Of a stretch of DNA of 64,000 nucleotides, positions 4,693 through 37,983 are shown in pieces; position 1 is the stretch's first letter, and each line of letters starts with the position of its first letter. This DNA comes from a virus: positions 11,892 through 75,891 of IMG/VR virus record IMGVR_UViG_3300027917_000038. One strand, 5' to 3'. The notes beneath the pieces are model-generated. The model was not told where the DNA came from, made no database searches, and saw only the letters and a list, made by a program, of their open reading frames with translations. The translations under genes and the position numbers were made by a program.

Positions 4693-5243
4693 TTCTTTTT
4701 TCTCCTATTATGTGAATGAGGAAATTTTTCTCTCAATGTTTCTTTTCCTAAAAATGGACATAATTTATTATATCCATCTCTCTTAAAAACATTCATAATT
4801 AAAATATCTTCAGGTCTATCTTTAAAATATTTTAAAACTTTATCGTGATAATCTAAAAATCCTTTCTTATAACTTCTTCTATCAAAATATTCATTTCCAT
4901 ATAAAGTTTCTCTTATAAAAATTTGTTGATTTGATAATTTTGGTTGTTTAGTTCTTGAAAAAAACCATTTTGCAGAACTCAACCATTCTGTTAAATCTCT
5001 TGTTGTTAAAATAAATTTTGAATTTGGATACATTTCATCTAATGCAACGTAATTAATACAAACAGGTGTATCCGTTATGGCATCATAAATTTCTACTAAA
5101 TAATAAAAATGTTTAAGATTTGGGTAGTGTATTGTTTTATATCCTAATCTTTTTAAAGCGTTAGTAAGAGAAAGTGTGCCAGTTCTTGATAAACCAATAC
5201 CAAAAATTTTATTAATATCCTTCAAAATGATATTCGCCTCCAT
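4689..5243 (-). CDS. Sulfotransferase family protein
   Basis: GIGLSRTGTLSL 5'-PSB-like loop, KFILTTR...WLSS 3'-PB motif and LCPFLG...FPHSH C-terminus. Confidence 0.8.
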   Translation of the reverse strand: MEANIILKDINKIFGIGLSRTGTLSLTNALKRLGYKTIHYPNLKHFYYLVEIYDAITDTPVCINYVALDEMYPNSKFILTTRDLTEWLSSAKWFFSRTKQPKLSNQQIFIRETLYGNEYFDRRSYKKGFLDYHDKVLKYFKDRPEDILIMNVFKRDGYNKLCPFLGKETLREKFPHSHNRRKKK

Positions 5244-27338: not shown

Positions 27339-28799
27339 TCAATCTGTTTTAGTTTTTCTTGATTGATTATATTCCACAAGTCGCTCTTTAGCGCTTCTTT
27401 GAGTTTCTCTTTCAGATGGTTGTTTTTGGGCAAGTGCCTCAACCTTTTTGTTTTCATTTTGAGGTAGTTCGTCTAAAAATCCAAATGCGGATTGTGCGGC
27501 TTTCCTCATTTCATTTACATCGTTCCAAACTCCTACCATTGCTCCAAGTTGTATTGATTGCATTAACTCTAAAGTTGTTTCTAATCTAAGAGGACTCCAA
27601 TCAATTTCAATTTCATGTGGAGACACATCGTTTATTCCATGATAAGGCAATAAACAAAAAGCGTAGAAATTTGTTAATATTAATTCATATTTTCTTCTTA
27701 TACCTTTTATGAATCTTAACCAACTTTCTTGTAAGATTCTTGAAGTTGCTAATTCAGATCCTCGTGCTTCTCTCATGCCCATGGAACCGAATATAGTATA
27801 CATTATTTGTTTATCTAGTTCTTGAATGTAGATGACATAAATTTCTGAACTTCTTGCAGTCTGTGTTTCTAATGTTTTCATTTCCATTTCCCCTGGAATG
27901 GAAACTCCACCAAAATTTGTGATTTGTCTTATAAATTGTTTTCCATTGTCTAAAGCCGCTTGCATTTTATGGATATCAGTTGGATAAACATTTGATCTTG
28001 GGTCTCCGACTGATAATATTACGAATGGTGCCCAATGTTTTTGAGAATATTTTCTCATAAACCAGAGAATCCATCTTTTATAAACGATATAATGCAGAGC
28101 ATTAGCAATTGGAGGTTTTTTGAAAAATCTTCCAAATAAAATCACATTTGGTTCATCTGCTAAATGTATTTGTTGTTCCTCATATTCACTTTGTAACGTG
28201 TCGCTGTAGGTGATTTTCCCAGGTTCTCTTCCCCAATCTGATTTGTATCTAAGATAATTGTCTTTTCCTGCAGATCTGTAAAAATTCTTTTTTGTTCTAT
28301 GGTAGTTGTATTTTGGAACGTGTTGTATGAATTTTCTGTAACCCATTACAGGATCTTCACGAACTTCAATCGTTTTAGGATCTAATCTTTGTATATCAAC
28401 GTTTTCATATTCAATGCTTCTATCAGTTCTCCATGCGAACATGCTATAAACTATTGAATCGTACCATGTTTCTATTATCCAGTCTTCTACTGTTTGTCTT
28501 TTTACATTTATTCCTCTGTTCCATCTTTTAATGATATCAATGGCTTCTTGTCTTTTATCACATCTAACCCTAGGCCCATCTCCTACAATAACAGAACCAG
28601 TTATTTCAGTAAATGAGACAGCAACTGAATCATTCCAAAAACCTTCTTCAAGATTTTTGTATGTTGGTTTTATCATGACTTTTCTCAATTCTTTCAAGTC
28701 TTGATCTAAGTCAAACGAATCACTCCCGATTGTTGCCAATATGGCTCTTTTGCTTGGCCAGAATTCTTGTTCTGGATCTACTGTTTTTCTAATAGGCAT
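27339..28799 (-). CDS. Portal protein
   Basis: 486 aa directly after the terminase; QRLDPKTIEV and GGVSIPGEMEMKTLE portal-like segments. Confidence 0.8.
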   Translation of the reverse strand: MPIRKTVDPEQEFWPSKRAILATIGSDSFDLDQDLKELRKVMIKPTYKNLEEGFWNDSVAVSFTEITGSVIVGDGPRVRCDKRQEAIDIIKRWNRGINVKRQTVEDWIIETWYDSIVYSMFAWRTDRSIEYENVDIQRLDPKTIEVREDPVMGYRKFIQHVPKYNYHRTKKNFYRSAGKDNYLRYKSDWGREPGKITYSDTLQSEYEEQQIHLADEPNVILFGRFFKKPPIANALHYIVYKRWILWFMRKYSQKHWAPFVILSVGDPRSNVYPTDIHKMQAALDNGKQFIRQITNFGGVSIPGEMEMKTLETQTARSSEIYVIYIQELDKQIMYTIFGSMGMREARGSELATSRILQESWLRFIKGIRRKYELILTNFYAFCLLPYHGINDVSPHEIEIDWSPLRLETTLELMQSIQLGAMVGVWNDVNEMRKAAQSAFGFLDELPQNENKKVEALAQKQPSERETQRSAKERLVEYNQSRKTKTD

Positions 28800-28984: not shown

Positions 28985-30610
28985 TTAGAATCCATAGCTG
29001 AGTTTTACTCCTCTAATTTTTAATTTATCTAAATATGTAGGTCTTCTTCTATGTCCCCAACATGATAAAGCAAGCGCAATAACTCTATCATCATGAAACG
29101 ATTGTGTCCCATATTTTATATAATCTGTACCTGGAAGTTCATCACATTCAAATCTTAACAATTCTTCTCTTAAGTTTCCTATTTCTGGTTCGCTTGCTGG
29201 CGGTATTTCAATTCTGTTTTGTGCAAATGTTTTTATTAAATTTCCTATCAATTCAGGTTTTGTAATTCTTGAGATTATAAATCCTTTTTGATTTTGTCGA
29301 TTGTCAAAAATTTGAGTTCTTACTGGTATTCCATTCGATCTACGAAGATTTTCAAGATCTTCTTGCAATTGTTCTACTAAAGGATCTCCTAATCCAGTAG
29401 CATCTGGTACTATCCATGTTGGATTAAAAACTTGAATAACTTTTAATAATTTATCTCTAATATATCTATATGTTTTGTGTTCATCATATTCACCAGCAAC
29501 TGACATTCCAAAATCAAGAATTATTCTTCCAGATTTTTTGTCTAAATGTGTGATATAAAAGCAAGAAGCGTCATGTTTTCTTCCATAATCAACACCGAGG
29601 ACATAATCAATGTCTCTTCTTGCTCTAAAGATATTTTTTAATTTTTTATTTGTACATGCTTTAAGCCATTCTCCTAAGAAAACCATTGATGCGTCAGAAA
29701 TGATTTCTCCTAGGTATTCTTGTCTTGCCGTTGGACTCCAACCTGCTTCATCAAGCAATTGCTTTACGTACCATTTAGGTCGAAGACCATCATTCCAAGC
29801 GTCTACGTATGGAGTTGCGAATAGTCCAACACCGTATTTATAATCAAATGCTCCACACATTGGACATTTGTGCATATCTTCAATAGGCATTTTTCCATTT
29901 GGAAATCTGTCTACATTAAATGCGGCTTGTGGGAATCTTTCTCCACATGCTTTACAAATTATATCACGAGTTTCTAATCCTTTGTAATAATATTCTATGA
30001 ACTTTCCTTTTGGGCCTTTTGGAGTGGAAAGCATTATCCATCTTTCACCGTGAGTAACTGTTGGCATTGCAGATTGAAAAATGATTTTTTCATCCATCAA
30101 ATGAGCTTCATCAACGAATAAAAGGTCGTAAGTACTACCTTCAATTCCATCTGTACAGGGCCAACATTCAACATAACTACCATTTGTAAGTTCTAAGTAG
30201 TCGACTCTTACGCTTTTAGGAATCACATAATCCCAGAAAATAGAGTGTTTTAAGATTTTCTTGATTTTATTAAACAATTTTTTAGATTGTTTCTCAGTAG
30301 CCGCAATAATTCCAATTGCGCAACCAGGTTTTATAACTAAGAGAGAACTTGCTGCGTATGCGCAACCAAGAGTTTTTCCTGTTTGGCGAGGCCAAATCAT
30401 TACAACTCCTCTTGGAATTTTCTCGACTTCGTCAAAATCATATTGACTTAAAGGAAATCCAAATTGAATAGAGTCAATTGCGTCTTTTTGAGGCTGTGTT
30501 AATTTGATAGGACGAGAACGATTCTTTTCTTCGTGAAAAAATCTCTCAATAAAACTAACTGCCCTGAACATTACATCGTCTATTCCTTGTAACTCTTCGA
30601 GGACTTCCAC
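28985..30610 (-). CDS. terL: Terminase large subunit
   Basis: Q-motif (LTQPQ), Walker A RQTGKT, Walker B LFVDEAH, motif III LSTP, and nuclease GVDYGR, DATGLG and HDDRVIALAL. Confidence 0.95.
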   Translation of the reverse strand: MEVLEELQGIDDVMFRAVSFIERFFHEEKNRSRPIKLTQPQKDAIDSIQFGFPLSQYDFDEVEKIPRGVVMIWPRQTGKTLGCAYAASSLLVIKPGCAIGIIAATEKQSKKLFNKIKKILKHSIFWDYVIPKSVRVDYLELTNGSYVECWPCTDGIEGSTYDLLFVDEAHLMDEKIIFQSAMPTVTHGERWIMLSTPKGPKGKFIEYYYKGLETRDIICKACGERFPQAAFNVDRFPNGKMPIEDMHKCPMCGAFDYKYGVGLFATPYVDAWNDGLRPKWYVKQLLDEAGWSPTARQEYLGEIISDASMVFLGEWLKACTNKKLKNIFRARRDIDYVLGVDYGRKHDASCFYITHLDKKSGRIILDFGMSVAGEYDEHKTYRYIRDKLLKVIQVFNPTWIVPDATGLGDPLVEQLQEDLENLRRSNGIPVRTQIFDNRQNQKGFIISRITKPELIGNLIKTFAQNRIEIPPASEPEIGNLREELLRFECDELPGTDYIKYGTQSFHDDRVIALALSCWGHRRRPTYLDKLKIRGVKLSYGF

Positions 30611-30996
30611 TTATTTAACATCTCTTCTCTTTTATCAGGATCGACTCCTAAAACTTTAACGATTAGTTTGGCTTGAAGTTTAAGTTTTTCTTTTTCAGCC
30701 TCTTGTTGAATTTCTCCTCCTCCCATTTTCCACATATCGTCTAAGAAGTGTCTCATTTCTGTAATCCATTTTAAGAGTTGTGGGTGCATGTATGTCTTTT
30801 GACCTATGATGTTTCCTTCTTCGTCTATGAGTTGGTCTATTCTTTCATCTTTAAGAAGTTTATTTATGACATCCTGTACCATCTCATATCCTTTTGTCAT
30901 CTCCAGAGCGATGTTTTTTAGGAGGGTGTCTTTATCACTATGCTTATCTAGTGGATAATTCTTTTCCTTTTCAACTATTTCGTTTTTAGTTTCCAT
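30580..30996 (-). CDS. Probable terminase small subunit
   Basis: Helical 138-aa protein overlapping the terL start; MHPQL motif. Confidence 0.55.
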   Translation of the reverse strand: METKNEIVEKEKNYPLDKHSDKDTLLKNIALEMTKGYEMVQDVINKLLKDERIDQLIDEEGNIIGQKTYMHPQLLKWITEMRHFLDDMWKMGGGEIQQEAEKEKLKLQAKLIVKVLGVDPDKREEMLNKWKSSKSYKE

Positions 30997-31105
30997 AATC
31001 CTAAGTGTATAATGTTGTATTCATTTATAAATATGATAGGACATGTTTAAATATTTAAAAATTATAACATAAGTAGAGTATAAAAATTTATACGAGTTGA
31101 TTTTA

Positions 31106-31255
31106 ATGAAAATGGTAGGAATAAAAATGAGTGATGAGCTACACAAAGAATTTAAGAGTTTTTGTCTTATGAGGGATACGAATATGTCAGAAGAATTAAG
31201 AAGTTATATAGTTTTTTGTGTGGGTGAGATGAAAAGACGTAAAAAAGAGGTATAA
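31106..31255 (+). CDS. Ribbon-helix-helix DNA-binding protein, 49 aa, not in the ORF track (MKMVGIKMSDELHKEFKSFCLMRDTNMSEELRSYIVFCVGEMKRRKKEV)
   Basis: Alternating beta-strand, SDELHKEFK helix, then NMSEELRSYI helix: CopG/ParG RHH pattern; divergent from the terminase operon. Confidence 0.75.
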   Translation: MKMVGIKMSDELHKEFKSFCLMRDTNMSEELRSYIVFCVGEMKRRKKEV

Positions 31256-31327: not shown

Positions 31328-31479
31328 AGTTTTAAATTTGTAAAACCCCATAGTCGGGGGCAAAAATCTCATTTAAATATGAATTTGCTGGTAAAGAGAT
31401 GGGGATGAGAAGTATGAAAAGACAGAGTTTTAAATTTGTAAAATCCCTATAATACTGGGGGGGTGCGACAAATTTGAAA
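31328..31479. repeat. Direct repeat AGTTTTAAATTTGTAAAA (31328-31345, 31426-31443), each followed by a C-run...G-run; the second is part of the 52-bp site at 31428-31479
   Basis: Read directly from the sequence. Confidence 0.85.
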
Positions 31480-31646
31480 TGAATTCTAAATAGATAAAAT
31501 TAATTTTAGGATCGGTTTATTAATTTCATATTCTTGAAAATCAAATTACAAAAAATTTTATGGTGTGGGGGTTTAAGGCGACTCGCCCAGGTCTCTCAAA
31601 CAAAAGCATGCTTACGTATAAAATTTCAACGTTTTCAAGATTACGT

Positions 31647-32323
31647 GATCATTTTCGATCATGTATTATAAAAAAAGAAAAAAAAATATTTGAATCCGAT
31701 CAAATAAATGATCGGAAACTAGCATTTGATTATCATAATTGATCATCTATTTTTCAGATTTCTCAATCATTTCGATCAAATATTTCATTAATTTATCATT
31801 TTGACTAGCTAATCTGATCAATTTCGATATCTTGAAAACTAGTTTTTTATCATTAGTTTTCTTAATTTGATCTTTCGAAATATTAGATTCTTTCATAGTT
31901 TTTTCGAATTTCGAAAAATTCTTGTAGATATATGATCGAATCTTTGATTCAGATTGATCTTTCAATTTGACGTTTTCGATCATTTGAATATCATTTAAGA
32001 TCAAAATTCCGATCAATTCTGATCTTTTAGCGATTTTTTTCGACGTCTTTTGATTAAGATCGTCATATAAATCATTGATCTTAGTCATAGGAATATCAAT
32101 TTTGATCATGAATTTGATCAAATCCGTTTGACGTTTTTTCGAAAATGATATCCATTTTGCATCAAATTGACTAGTCTTTATGATATTTTCGATCTTTTTA
32201 TTCATGTTATCGATCATCTCATAGAGATTTTTGATCACACGTTTATCATTCTTGATCATTATTATTCATTATTCTGATCATTTTGACGATCAAGATCGAT
32301 CGTTTTAATGATCATTTTTGATC
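31647..32323. other. GATC-dense, GG/CC-depleted compositional island
   Basis: 28 GATC sites in ~680 bp by hand count; 6 GG/CC dinucleotides in 31621-32400. Confidence 0.9.
31747..32259 (-). CDS. Lys/Ile-rich hypothetical protein encoded inside the GATC island
   Basis: 170-aa open frame; BRE-TATA-like CGAAATCTTTATAAA upstream on the minus strand at ~32372-32386. Confidence 0.55.
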   Translation of the reverse strand: MIKNDKRVIKNLYEMIDNMNKKIENIIKTSQFDAKWISFSKKRQTDLIKFMIKIDIPMTKINDLYDDLNQKTSKKIAKRSELIGILILNDIQMIENVKLKDQSESKIRSYIYKNFSKFEKTMKESNISKDQIKKTNDKKLVFKISKLIRLASQNDKLMKYLIEMIEKSEK

Positions 32324-32611
32324 ATTGCGAGAATTTAGAAACGTGAATCAAGATACTAGAATGAATTATCGTTTATAAAGATTTCGATTTGAGAAGCATG
32401 AGCCGGGGTCACAAAAGTGTAAAAACATCACTCGAATTTTAGTGATTTTTAGGACATTAAAAAAAAATTCGCACTCGAAAAAATCACATAGAGAAAAGAC
32501 GTACGCTTACGCCATCGCACTCCCTCGTCCATTCTACAAATGTCAATCTCTTCCTGACAATATTTATTTGACAACTTGCTACTTACTATAATATCTCTCA
32601 CATCAAAAAAT

Positions 32612-35490: not shown

Positions 35491-37983
35491 TTATTTTGAT
35501 GTTAATAATTTAGCCTCTTTAACTTCACATTCTGCTTCATACAATAAATTGAATATGTCGTCAAATATATCTTGCTCATTCATTTCAATGGACATTTTCA
35601 ATGCCACATTAATCACTTGACTTATTTTTATATTTTGTTGCGGATAAATCGACACTCGTTTTTTGTTCAATGGATTCTTGTAGATTAAATCTTGATTGCC
35701 TATAACGGTTCCATGAGTAAAAGCAGTCCAGCCATCCCATTCATCTTGTAAATCAATACAGTTTTCTTTGAATTGGTGATAGAATTTATGCATAAATTCA
35801 TCGCCACGTTTATAGATCTTCACTATTCCGCCTATGTTGAGATTATTAGACATAACCTTGCAATAACTAACTACATCTCTTTGTATTATTATTCTACGAT
35901 AATAATTCACATCTACATAATTATGTGCCATCTCTTTGATAATCTCTCGCAAGAAATCTTTTGAACGTTTTATCTTTCTTGCTCTGACTTCACTTAAAAG
36001 CACTCTGTATTTTTTCAATGTCTTATCAATCTCTTCCAGCACTCCCAAATTGCCTAATTTCTTTTGTAGTTTTTGTATTTGTTTGCCAATGCTTTTGGCT
36101 TTCTTGCTATTGCCGTGATAGTTCTTCTTGTTCTTTTTCAAAACTTTTATATCTCTAACAATTTCTAATATCTGTCGTTTCAAATCTATGTACTTCCTTT
36201 TCTGTTTCATCAAGTAAGCGATTAATCTATGTAAAGCATGACTATTTGGAATAAATTTTAAGACATCTTGAAAGAACTTCCTGAAATATTTGTTTCTAAC
36301 ATCATCGTCTTTTATTTTGCTACATTTATCAAGATATAAATGTCTCGCATCAATATCAGCAATAAAGAAATCCATGTCATTCTCACCAGTTTCATATACA
36401 CATTGATTTATTATATTGCCACCTCGAATCCATCCAGTCTCTCCAAAATATTGTTGATGATGAAAACTTGCATAAACTTTGTAATAATTGTTTTTACTTG
36501 TCTCTTTAGAAACAATTTTTTTCTTATTGATATATCTAGGTTGTGGATAATATAATTGGTAAGAAGTAATGGCAGTATTAGTCATTTCGTAATTTCCTAT
36601 TGGATCATGAATTTGTCTATCTGATAACCCCTTAATTCCTAGTTTGTGGCAAAATATCCTAAAGTTTCTTATATAATTTTGTTGAATATCCGGATTGCTA
36701 TGATAAGGAAAAACAAAATCTACATCACAACACTCATCTTCTATTTGTAATTTTTCTTTATACAAATTATCTTCAACATCATCAAGAAACCCTGTATGAA
36801 ACCATTTCTTTGGAGCTAAATAATCGTACTGAATCCATACTTTGTTCCTTATTTGTCCTTGTTTGACAATGCGTACATGCTTATTGTTCTCCAATTTCTT
36901 AATGAAACGTTGATATCTCTTTGGTCTAACTGAAATACAGGCAAATAAGAAGTCATTAAGATCTATTGTAGGGGTTTCATCACAATAATCAAATGCCATC
37001 GGAACATGTCGCATTATCTTTCCACTGTCAGCCCATATCTTATTGTCATTCAATTGTTCTCCATATCGTTCTTTTAACACAAAATCTTCATATTCCTTGC
37101 GTTTCTTTTTCATCCAGAGTTTAATCTTGCTGTTCTTTACGGAATAGTTATTATTCTTAATGTGTTGAATAATATGTTTATCTATGGAACAATCATCTAA
37201 GAAATTGTTAGTTGTCTTGATTTGTTCTTCTAAATCAATTTCATAATCACCACTTATTCGCCATTGTTTCTTTAAGAAACGAGCATATTCTTCCATGCTC
37301 ATTACGCCTGTAGGTCTATTCATTTGTTGTTTGTTTTCGTTTATTTTCTCTTTTATGTATCTGATATATTCCAAATGATCGACCAGTTCAAAAACATCTT
37401 TTGCTATCTTTTTCTGCTTGTCTAATTCTTCTACTAATTCTCTGTTCCAAAGTGTTTCAGAATCCACTTGAATTTCTATTGTTTTTGTTTTAGCTGTTAT
37501 CTTCTTTCCATCCCAACTTCCTGGGACAATCCTCGTAGCCACTTTCACTTTCTCTGTTATTGTATAATTGCTCTGAATCCATTGTGGAATCTCTTCACAA
37601 ATAGTCTTATTATCTTTTGTGATTATCTCGCATTTCTGAAGGCAAGTAATCGCATTCTCCACAATCTTCTGAAAAGCTGGAGTTCTTTTTTTGTCATGAT
37701 ATTCTTGTTTAAGAATTTTGTTTAATTCTTTTTTGACCATGAGCTGAATGTGATCAATACTACATTTCCTAAGAAATCTGTTGCTTGAACGCATGTTAAA
37801 TAGACCAAAGAAATCATTGGACTTTCTAACAGTATTAGTTCTAATGTACTTATAAATAATAGCATTAATAGTCTTTTTGTTTCCCTTCATCACTTGGTCG
37901 CATAATCTGTCAAGAAGCGTTGCGTCCAATTTGAGCATTTTTAATTTAAAAACAGTATTCAATTTTAAGCTTGTTAAATCCAT
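35491..37983 (-). CDS. Large orphan protein (830 aa)
   Basis: Long ORF with GAGGTG RBS; no family confidently recognised. Confidence 0.75.
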   Translation of the reverse strand: MDLTSLKLNTVFKLKMLKLDATLLDRLCDQVMKGNKKTINAIIYKYIRTNTVRKSNDFFGLFNMRSSNRFLRKCSIDHIQLMVKKELNKILKQEYHDKKRTPAFQKIVENAITCLQKCEIITKDNKTICEEIPQWIQSNYTITEKVKVATRIVPGSWDGKKITAKTKTIEIQVDSETLWNRELVEELDKQKKIAKDVFELVDHLEYIRYIKEKINENKQQMNRPTGVMSMEEYARFLKKQWRISGDYEIDLEEQIKTTNNFLDDCSIDKHIIQHIKNNNYSVKNSKIKLWMKKKRKEYEDFVLKERYGEQLNDNKIWADSGKIMRHVPMAFDYCDETPTIDLNDFLFACISVRPKRYQRFIKKLENNKHVRIVKQGQIRNKVWIQYDYLAPKKWFHTGFLDDVEDNLYKEKLQIEDECCDVDFVFPYHSNPDIQQNYIRNFRIFCHKLGIKGLSDRQIHDPIGNYEMTNTAITSYQLYYPQPRYINKKKIVSKETSKNNYYKVYASFHHQQYFGETGWIRGGNIINQCVYETGENDMDFFIADIDARHLYLDKCSKIKDDDVRNKYFRKFFQDVLKFIPNSHALHRLIAYLMKQKRKYIDLKRQILEIVRDIKVLKKNKKNYHGNSKKAKSIGKQIQKLQKKLGNLGVLEEIDKTLKKYRVLLSEVRARKIKRSKDFLREIIKEMAHNYVDVNYYRRIIIQRDVVSYCKVMSNNLNIGGIVKIYKRGDEFMHKFYHQFKENCIDLQDEWDGWTAFTHGTVIGNQDLIYKNPLNKKRVSIYPQQNIKISQVINVALKMSIEMNEQDIFDDIFNLLYEAECEVKEAKLLTSK

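Follow-up and report, generated by a model that had tools for sequence, protein, structure and literature searches.

Clusters of GATC sites that are read through Dam methylation are a classic means of control in bacteria, and oriC with SeqA, the pac site of phage P1 and the pap operon are examples. The oriC of E. coli has 11 GATC sites in 256 bp (PMC11447400). In phage P1, pac is a 161-bp site inside the pacA gene with seven Dam sites of the form TGATCA/G, which is bound when hemimethylated and cut when it is further methylated (bioRxiv 10.1101/2022.09.02.506314). In the P1 record AF234172, 7-8 sites lie in about 180 bp, arranged as 4 + 3 around an IHF site and the cleavage gap, and they are not helically phased. 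Clusters of GATC inside genes have also been described in E. coli and Salmonella (Henaut 1996; Riva et al. 2004, PMC493266); their methylation state was proposed to affect transcription of the gene that carries them.

Here we describe a GATC array in a tailed virus (labelled G000). The source is a linear contig of 75.9 kb with a CheckV completeness of 77%, and the window, meaning the whole stretch of DNA that was analysed, is 64 kb long and corresponds to positions 11892-75891 of this contig. Positions below are those of the window. The virus was assigned to the tailed viruses by its gene content, a Terminase_6N/PHROG 2 large terminase and a Portal_Mu portal protein. Its late block is on the minus strand and runs leftward as far as about 31 kb, and its early block runs rightward on the plus strand from 32.7 kb and then again from 38.7 kb. 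The virus encodes a TFIIB zinc ribbon gene, and its terL is 74% identical to the counterpart on a contig of a Heimdallarchaeota metagenome-assembled genome (MAG). An archaeal (Asgard) host would fit both observations, consistent with the archaeal virus assumed in the original prediction. TerL searches brought up several related viruses; the related genomes and loci are labelled G001-G005, L043, L128, and L129.

The GATC array and the gene beneath it

The array lies in the following setting.

27339-28799, minus strand: portal protein (Pfam Portal_Mu, 6e-7)
28985-30610, minus strand: large terminase gene terL (Pfam Terminase_6N, 1.2e-10; PHROG 2, 1.8e-34)
30580-30996, minus strand: candidate small terminase gene terS, from its position upstream of terL and its conservation
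31097-31255, plus strand: small ribbon-helix-helix (RHH)-like gene, divergent from terS; the RHH call is a reading of the sequence only
31428-31479, no strand: hairpin with palindromic arms (inverted repeats I3 and I21), between ORF170 and the RHH-like gene
31646-31661, plus strand: left boundary paired site TGATCATTTTCGATCA, an exact 16-mer on the 3' side of ORF170
31647-31746, minus strand: 3' flank of ORF170, with 5 GATC and an A-rich tract at 31664-31690
31647-32323, no strand: GATC array, with 28 GATC (10 as TGATCA), a 10.7-bp phase, T-tracts in antiphase, and TCGA co-enriched
31747-32259, minus strand: ORF170, a small helical protein of 170 aa with 17 GATC, from the open reading frame list and with homologues in relatives
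32260-32323, minus strand: 5' flank, the presumed promoter region of ORF170, with 6 GATC in 64 bp, in phase with the sites in the ORF
32309-32324, plus strand: right boundary paired site TGATCATTTTTGATCA, an exact 16-mer on the 5' (promoter) side of ORF170

The candidate terS is upstream of terL in all relatives, with identities of 37-60%, and has no family match in Pfam or PHROGs. The RHH-like gene has no Pfam match; a counterpart is present in G001/L001 and L043, and none was found in G002/L002. The hairpin is probably a bidirectional terminator, and L001 and L002 have similar hairpins at the equivalent place. The island starts 651 bp from the start of terS (about 650 bp had been predicted), at the junction where the late minus-strand block and the early plus-strand block diverge. 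Gene orientation and GC skew both switch at the island, the skew being confounded with the direction of transcription.

There are 28 GATC sites in the 677 bp of the island, compared to 1.4 expected from the rest of the genome or 1.5 from the base composition of the island (Poisson P ~1e-26). The original prediction had counted 28 sites in about 680 bp, about ten of them as TGATCA and five within 32288-32323. All of these counts were reproduced, and the observation is stronger than was claimed. The richest 680-bp window elsewhere in the 75.9-kb contig has 6 GATC (mean 1.4), and about 150 further GATC lie outside the island in the genome. The array runs on without interruption, its largest gap being 75 bp. 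TCGA is a second word of the array, with 13 occurrences against 0.9 expected. ACGT and CTAG, which had been listed as recurrent together with TCGA, are only mildly in excess (4-5 against 0.6 expected). A decayed tandem repeat was rejected as the source of the array because no tandem-repeat structure was found in the island. Rfam gave no credible RNA family within the island. Logan contigs from two independent studies both have the island, one in identical form and one as a strain variant with two substitutions within the island, neither of which hits a GATC. Therefore, the island is not the assembly chimera that the original prediction had allowed for.

As had been noted, the bias covers the 170-aa ORF and both flanks, with 17 GATC in the ORF and 5 + 6 in the flanks. 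Twelve of the 17 sites in ORF170 are xxG-ATC codon pairs (Met, Leu, Lys, or Val followed by Ile). When the ORF was resampled synonymously by the codon usage of the genome (3000 trials), the mean was 4.0 GATC and the maximum 10, against the 17 observed, so the enrichment survives control for the amino acid content of the ORF. ATC is used for 15 of the 26 Ile codons, compared to 7.7% genome-wide. By dynamic programming, ORF170 could encode at most 27 GATC, and 17 of these 27 opportunities are used (63%), compared to 8.4% in other long ORFs. The GATC enrichment thus reflects selection on the DNA, and the protein does not account for it. Moreover, ORF170 has 15.9 GATC opportunities per 100 aa against a background of 7.5, so the amino acid sequence was bent to fit the array as well.

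The sites are also helically phased. Among periods of 5-30 bp, 10.7 bp gives the highest Rayleigh power for GATC (13.7, n = 28), and 25 of the 28 sites fall within one half-turn, in a single phase that holds over about 63 helical turns and includes the flanks. On the 10.7-bp circle, the mean phase is 7.3 in the 3' flank (n = 5), 6.9 in ORF170 (n = 17), and 7.1 in the 5' flank (n = 6). G and C outside GATC have no 10.7-bp periodicity. Since the flanks share the phase of the ORF and G/C outside GATC is aperiodic, the periodicity of a protein helix is excluded as the source. T-tracts recur at 10.7 bp as well, about half a turn off the GATC sites, with a power of 10.9-13.7, whereas none of 320 background windows exceeded 7.8, and TATC variants in GATC phase fill gaps of the array. 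The phased T-tracts predict that the DNA is probably intrinsically curved.

Both edges of the island are marked by the same word. The exact 16-mer TGATCATTTTYGATCA contains two GATC one helical turn apart, and within the window it occurs only at the two edges (expected 0.06). The 5' flank also contains GATCAAGATCGATC, which is common to L043. The array is bounded by paired sites and is co-extensive with one transcription unit, that is, the promoter, coding sequence, and 3' end of ORF170. A search of IMG/VR with the 16-mer gave 75 loci, about the number estimated for chance. Among these, only G002 and one unrelated phage (L084) have GATC-dense surroundings; L084 has about five GATCAAAAATGATCA iterons in an HTH_36 replication-type gene, and the paired word is as at the island edges.

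ORF170 itself matches no Pfam or PHROG family. Its AlphaFold model is of low confidence (pLDDT 62) and has no Foldseek match in the PDB. Pfam, PHROG, and fold searches gave no recognisable DNA-binding or initiator domain, and a protein atlas search gave no usable result. The family is tiny: three lineages were found among 5.8 billion proteins, and L043 and L129 were added through DNA. The homologues in G001, G002, L043, and L129 are at the equivalent map position, have identities of 29-38%, and always adjoin the RHH/terS/terL block.

Related viruses and adenine methyltransferases

Three lineages have the array, with the following sites, period, and use of synonymous opportunities.

G000 (this virus): 28 GATC in 677 bp; 10.7 bp; 17/27 opportunities
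G002 / L128: 24-25 GATC in about 800 bp; 10.5 bp, power 8.5; 12/21 opportunities
L043 (contig of the Heimdallarchaeota MAG): 26 GATC in 549 bp; 10.8 bp, power 7.0; 16/25 opportunities

T/A-tracts are in antiphase to GATC in all three lineages, beyond any background window, with a tract period of 10.7 bp in L043. The L043 island has the 16-mer at each of its edges, G002 has a single copy, and the orientation of the 16-mer relative to the ORF is the same in the three lineages. The L043 module as a whole has the opposite orientation relative to terL, and the array goes with the ORF unit. The ORFs of G000 and L043 are 38% identical in protein and 51% identical in DNA. Of 14 aligned GATC, just 4 are common to both. 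Thus the density and phase of the array are kept while individual sites turn over.

The original prediction had pointed to relatives for an island at the same position. It was found over the homologous gene in G002 and L043, but G001 and L129 have the gene only. G001 is a complete genome that encodes an ORF170 homologue and both types of methyltransferase described below, yet it has no array and uses 2 of 13 opportunities; L129 likewise has the homologue without the array. The array is therefore dispensable in this clade. In the terL tree the array-bearing lineages do not form one clade, suggesting that the module has been lost or exchanged. G003 has only a small cluster elsewhere, with 10 GATC in 330 bp at a divergent junction. 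An array of a different word was considered for G001, but the protein accounts for its CTGA/ATGA excess, which leaves only CTAG marginally in excess (6 against 0.9). A comparison of gene content gave no gene exclusive to array-bearing genomes, the overlapping parts being mostly structural genes.

A D12 (Dam-family) methyltransferase was found in all five relatives searched (G001-G005), and a second methyltransferase, PF05869 'Dam', in four of the five. In G001, the methyltransferase genes have a family-B DNA polymerase (PolB) and an RFC-like ATPase as neighbours. The two methyltransferase genes of G002 are at L036:1426-2337 and L039:1447-1950. The contig of G000 has no methyltransferase gene in the 77% of the genome that it covers. 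By synteny it begins just downstream of the position of the methyltransferases in the relatives, and the absence is most simply put down to the missing 23% of the genome. The D12 enzyme of the relatives aligns with E. coli Dam and M.DpnII (E ~1e-10). In our reading of the alignment, the G002 enzyme does not conserve the residue aligned to EcoDam R124, and GATC specificity of the viral D12 enzyme is not inferable from the EcoDam alignment.

On the host side, 41 of 121 sampled Asgard genomes have D12 enzymes and 4 of 121 have DpnII-family (GATC) endonucleases, three of which adjoin a methyltransferase gene. From these counts, GATC methylation very probably exists in the phylum, mostly by enzymes for which no DpnII-family partner was found. 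The search for a GATC methyltransferase in virus or host that the original prediction had suggested thus gave Dam-family genes in relatives and Asgard genomes, but none on the contig itself. No member of the SeqA family (PF03925) was found in five viral genomes (G000-G004). In four Asgard genomes with a strong D12 match there were no helically spaced GATC triples, so no use of such arrays by the host is evident. Of the six places in the Heimdallarchaeota MAG where a GATC triple is helically spaced, four belong to the viral contig. The array is a trait of the virus.

Possible functions of the array

We consider it secure that selection has made the island a cis-acting DNA element built from GATC units, which are presented on one face of DNA that is probably curved. 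It looks like a platform for cooperative protein binding; since two related viruses have such an array as well, it is probably read by some protein, and perhaps via DNA methylation. Our preferred explanation, which we hold tentatively, is that the island is a docking array for a GATC-reading protein, probably methylation-sensitive, that switches the ORF170 unit at the early/late junction. The protein would start at the paired edge sites and would then bind cooperatively along the in-phase sites, so that the whole unit is coated or wrapped. Occupancy would be set by N6-adenine methylation of GATC, through Dam-family enzymes of the virus lineage or of the host. The unit could thereby change state as packaged DNA becomes newly replicated and then re-methylated DNA, which would make it a switch timed by replication or methylation that acts on ORF170 and perhaps also governs how accessible the adjoining packaging region is. 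Protein binding, the reading of methylation, the targeting of GATC by the methyltransferases, and the target of the switch are what we infer here, and what the switch controls is guesswork.

Two alternatives give the array an indispensable role, and we consider both less likely, though they are live rivals. As a pac site, the array would be bound by TerS and TerL beside their own genes and cut only if suitably methylated, for which P1 is the precedent (bioRxiv 10.1101/2022.09.02.506314). In three lineages, the island is found upstream of terS-terL at a distance of 0.65-1.1 kb. Two assemblies have G002-lineage contigs that stop inside the island or 225 bp past it, and the ends of the G001 assembly overlap by 99 bp within a gene, consistent with circularly permuted headful packaging. 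The phased A-tracts imply curved DNA, and curvature is known from sites that small terminases bind. However, the array is outside terS, and it is continuous over 550-830 bp, whereas P1 has its 4 + 3 unphased sites around a cleavage gap. TerL resembles P1 PacB around the ATPase motifs only (22% identity, E=0.005). G001 and L129 have terS, terL, and the ORF but not the array, and the L043 module is inverted relative to terL. The other alternative, a replication origin inside its own initiator gene (of the lambda O/ori or P1 repL/oriL type), would have ORF170 bind its own GATC sites, with methylation timing re-initiation. An origin would agree with an array that is co-extensive with one gene in either orientation, and also with curved DNA and an A-rich tract at one edge and with a location where gene orientation and GC skew change, though the skew follows transcription direction too. 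The P1 record annotates oriL within repL and an oriR with five Dam sites, and the L084 iterons in a replication-type gene use the same paired word. Yet ORF170 has no recognisable DNA-binding or initiator domain, the array consists of 28 loosely conserved 4-bp cores and not of a few long iterons, the PolB/RFC-like module of G001 is about 50 kb away, and here again there are relatives with the ORF and no array. The methylation-read packaging or replication switch of the original prediction therefore stands in part. Selection at the DNA level, adjacency to terS/terL, and the plausibility of adenine methylation support it, while a strict pac site or origin is weakened by the array-less G001 and L129, the inversion in L043, and the extent of the array over one transcription unit. 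An accessory switch is preferred over an indispensable pac site or origin because the array covers exactly one unit, follows that unit when it is inverted, and is dispensable in relatives.

Evasion of host defence, either through a decoy for a GATC-binding host enzyme or through a first-injected genome end purged of CC/GG-containing restriction sites or PAMs, had also been proposed, and we regard it as very unlikely. Restriction pressure on these viruses is real, as the relatives strongly avoid other palindromes by lineage (ACGT or CCGG is wholly absent), and some Asgard genomes have the DpnII-family endonucleases mentioned above. The predicted count of 6 GG/CC in 31621-32400 was also confirmed; composition predicts 27 and the genome averages 44 per 780 bp, so that the island is the genome minimum, and L043 is low too. 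But this depletion is mostly due to the composition of ORF170, a protein very poor in Gly, Pro, Trp, and Ala (Gly 0.6% compared to 6% genome-wide): after synonymous resampling, the 4 GG/CC inside the ORF compare with 7.4 expected (P=0.07). It is weaker in G002 (27 in 800 bp), CCGG and GGCC are not avoided in the G000 genome overall, and nothing indicates that the island enters first, so the idea of purged first-entry DNA is not supported. Nothing was found in favour of a decoy sink either; it would leave the roughly 150 other GATC exposed, and it needs neither helical phasing nor conserved edge motifs. The last alternative, a by-product of a Met/Leu-Ile-rich coiled-coil or amphipathic protein, of a decayed tandem repeat, or of an assembly artefact, is largely refuted and in our view hardly credible. 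The xxG-ATC codon pairs are what such a protein could produce, and a helix repeat of 3.5-3.6 residues would give a period of about 10.5-10.8 nt. Resampling nevertheless stops well short of 17 sites, the 11 sites outside the ORF have the same period and phase, and array-less homologues encode a similar protein; the repeat and artefact versions conflict with the lack of tandem-repeat structure and with the independent assemblies of two studies.

Returning to the docking array as the preferred explanation, the RHH-like protein was considered as its reader and rejected, because the presence of the RHH gene does not track the array (present in G001, not found in G002). The same distribution, with the gene in an array-less genome and not found in an array-bearing one, goes against a plasmid-type centromere (ParR/omega), and no ParA was found above the cut-off in G000-G003. 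A wider and more doubtful reading is that Asgard tailed viruses might have a form of epigenetic reading, in which N6-methyladenine made by virus or host in GATC (perhaps also in TCGA) is read by a polymerising protein on a curved, one-face array of 0.55-0.8 kb. Paired nucleation sites would bound the array, and the system might do the work of SeqA sequestration or P1 pac gating, having arisen independently in archaea. TCGA and GATC may perhaps match the two adenine methyltransferases of the lineage. The array sequence can serve as bait for a candidate reader protein, and with it one can test whether the Dam-family enzymes that are widespread in Asgard archaea and their viruses are tied to an actual function.

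Comparison with known GATC clusters

P1 pac is similar to this locus in several respects. Both have a GATC/TGATCA cluster over coding sequence beside terminase genes, in a lineage with its own adenine methyltransferase, and the cluster of P1-type hexamers is represented here by 10 TGATCA among the 28 GATC. However, pac lies in the small terminase gene, whereas the array is in a separate gene 651 bp from terS. Unlike pac, the island has 28 sites in 677 bp on one face of the helix, has paired edge sites, is dispensable in relatives, and is inverted in one of them. P1 PacB and the TerL of this virus are not specifically related.

The oriC/SeqA system shares with the island a local excess of GATC and sites paired on one helical face. 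SeqA binds GATC pairs on one helical face, which resembles the paired edges and the phasing seen here. The island is about three times longer than the oriC cluster and the host is archaeal, and the system differs further in that a SeqA homologue is absent from the five viral genomes searched. The intragenic clusters of Henaut and Riva are, like the array, within coding sequence, but they are far sparser and spread over many genes; the portions of those papers available to us describe no phasing or edge motif and give the mechanism as a hypothesis. The Dam setting of the cluster described here consists of Dam-family genes in five relatives and in a third of the sampled Asgard genomes, with none on the 77%-complete contig. 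Iteron origins (lambda O/ori, P1 repL/oriL, and L084) also have repeated words within a gene, and the paired word GATCAAAAATGATCA of L084 is identical. They have a few long conserved repeats in mid-gene and a recognisable DNA-binding domain, whereas here 4-bp cores with loose flanks extend over the entire gene and the DNA on either side of it, in a gene whose product has no recognisable domain.

A full-text search for GATC together with Asgard and virus returned, within the literature it reached, no description of a GATC cluster in an archaeal virus, and to that extent the original statement that no such element was known for an archaeal virus holds.

To our knowledge, phasing on one face over 63 turns combined with conserved paired edge sites has been described for no known GATC cluster. 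Bacteria and their phages are well known to have GATC clusters that are read through Dam; the archaeal virus, the phasing, and the edge motif set the present case apart.

The ORF170 junction and other word clusters in relatives

Two elements outside the GATC island were located, one beside ORF170 and one in a relative.

Window 31428-31479 and 31328-31349; L001 (from relative G001) ~5105-5150; L002 (from relative G002) ~880-930: conserved hairpin element, AAATTTGT(C)AAAACCCC ... GGGG
G003:C1:55018-55345 (in L025): a smaller cluster of GATC, with 10 sites over 330 bp

The hairpin element sits between the ORF170 homologue and the block of the ribbon-helix-helix-like and candidate small terminase genes (RHH/terS) in three lineages. 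It may serve as a bidirectional terminator, or as a site for a protein. In the G002 lineage, two independent assemblies stop inside the island or 225 bp past it (L128:1-230, L002:1-20). Such contig ends could mark a true end of the DNA, or they could stem from differences between strains or from an invertible segment.

The G001 homologue of ORF170 (L001:4443-4922) lacks the GATC array. CTAG is mildly enriched in this homologue, with 6 sites against 0.9 expected and 0.74 after synonymous resampling, and the excess is marginal after multiple testing. The smaller GATC cluster belongs to G003, a relative without the ORF170 family, and lies at the divergent junction between the early operon and the counterpart of the window's 830-aa gene at 35491-37983.

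Palindrome avoidance and methyltransferase genes

Some 4-bp palindromes are wholly missing from the whole records of relatives G001, G002 and G003 (loci L015-L027). ACGT is absent from both G002 and G003, and CCGG is absent from both G001 and G002, whereas the window's virus has 67 ACGT and 25 CCGG sites. This points to differing, strong restriction pressures on close relatives.

L041:822-1304 (contig 822-1304), and in relatives L036:2334-2762: nucleoside 2-deoxyribosyltransferase-like gene (PF05014)
G006:C75:4098-4745 (L044:1420-2274): D12-class methyltransferase gene in the Heimdallarchaeota MAG that also holds the related viral contig

In relatives, the PF05014 gene adjoins methyltransferase genes, and sulfotransferase and two group-1 glycosyltransferase genes follow at a greater distance. 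This set of genes may constitute a module for modifying DNA or virions. The D12-class gene of the MAG is surrounded by ordinary cellular genes, and no endonuclease gene was found beside it. Its product resembles an orphan Dam-like enzyme that the presumed host encodes.

Paired-GATC iterons in an unrelated phage

The paired-GATC word of the island also occurs in a phage (GC 45%) that is unrelated to the window's virus.

L084:2140-2380 (IMGVR_UViG_3300037847_005766): GATCAAAAATGATCA iterons, about five copies repeating every 23 bp, within a gene of 353 aa

The iteron-bearing gene encodes an HTH_36 domain and adjoins an RNase_T-like exonuclease gene. These iterons are probably an ordinary origin within an initiator gene.
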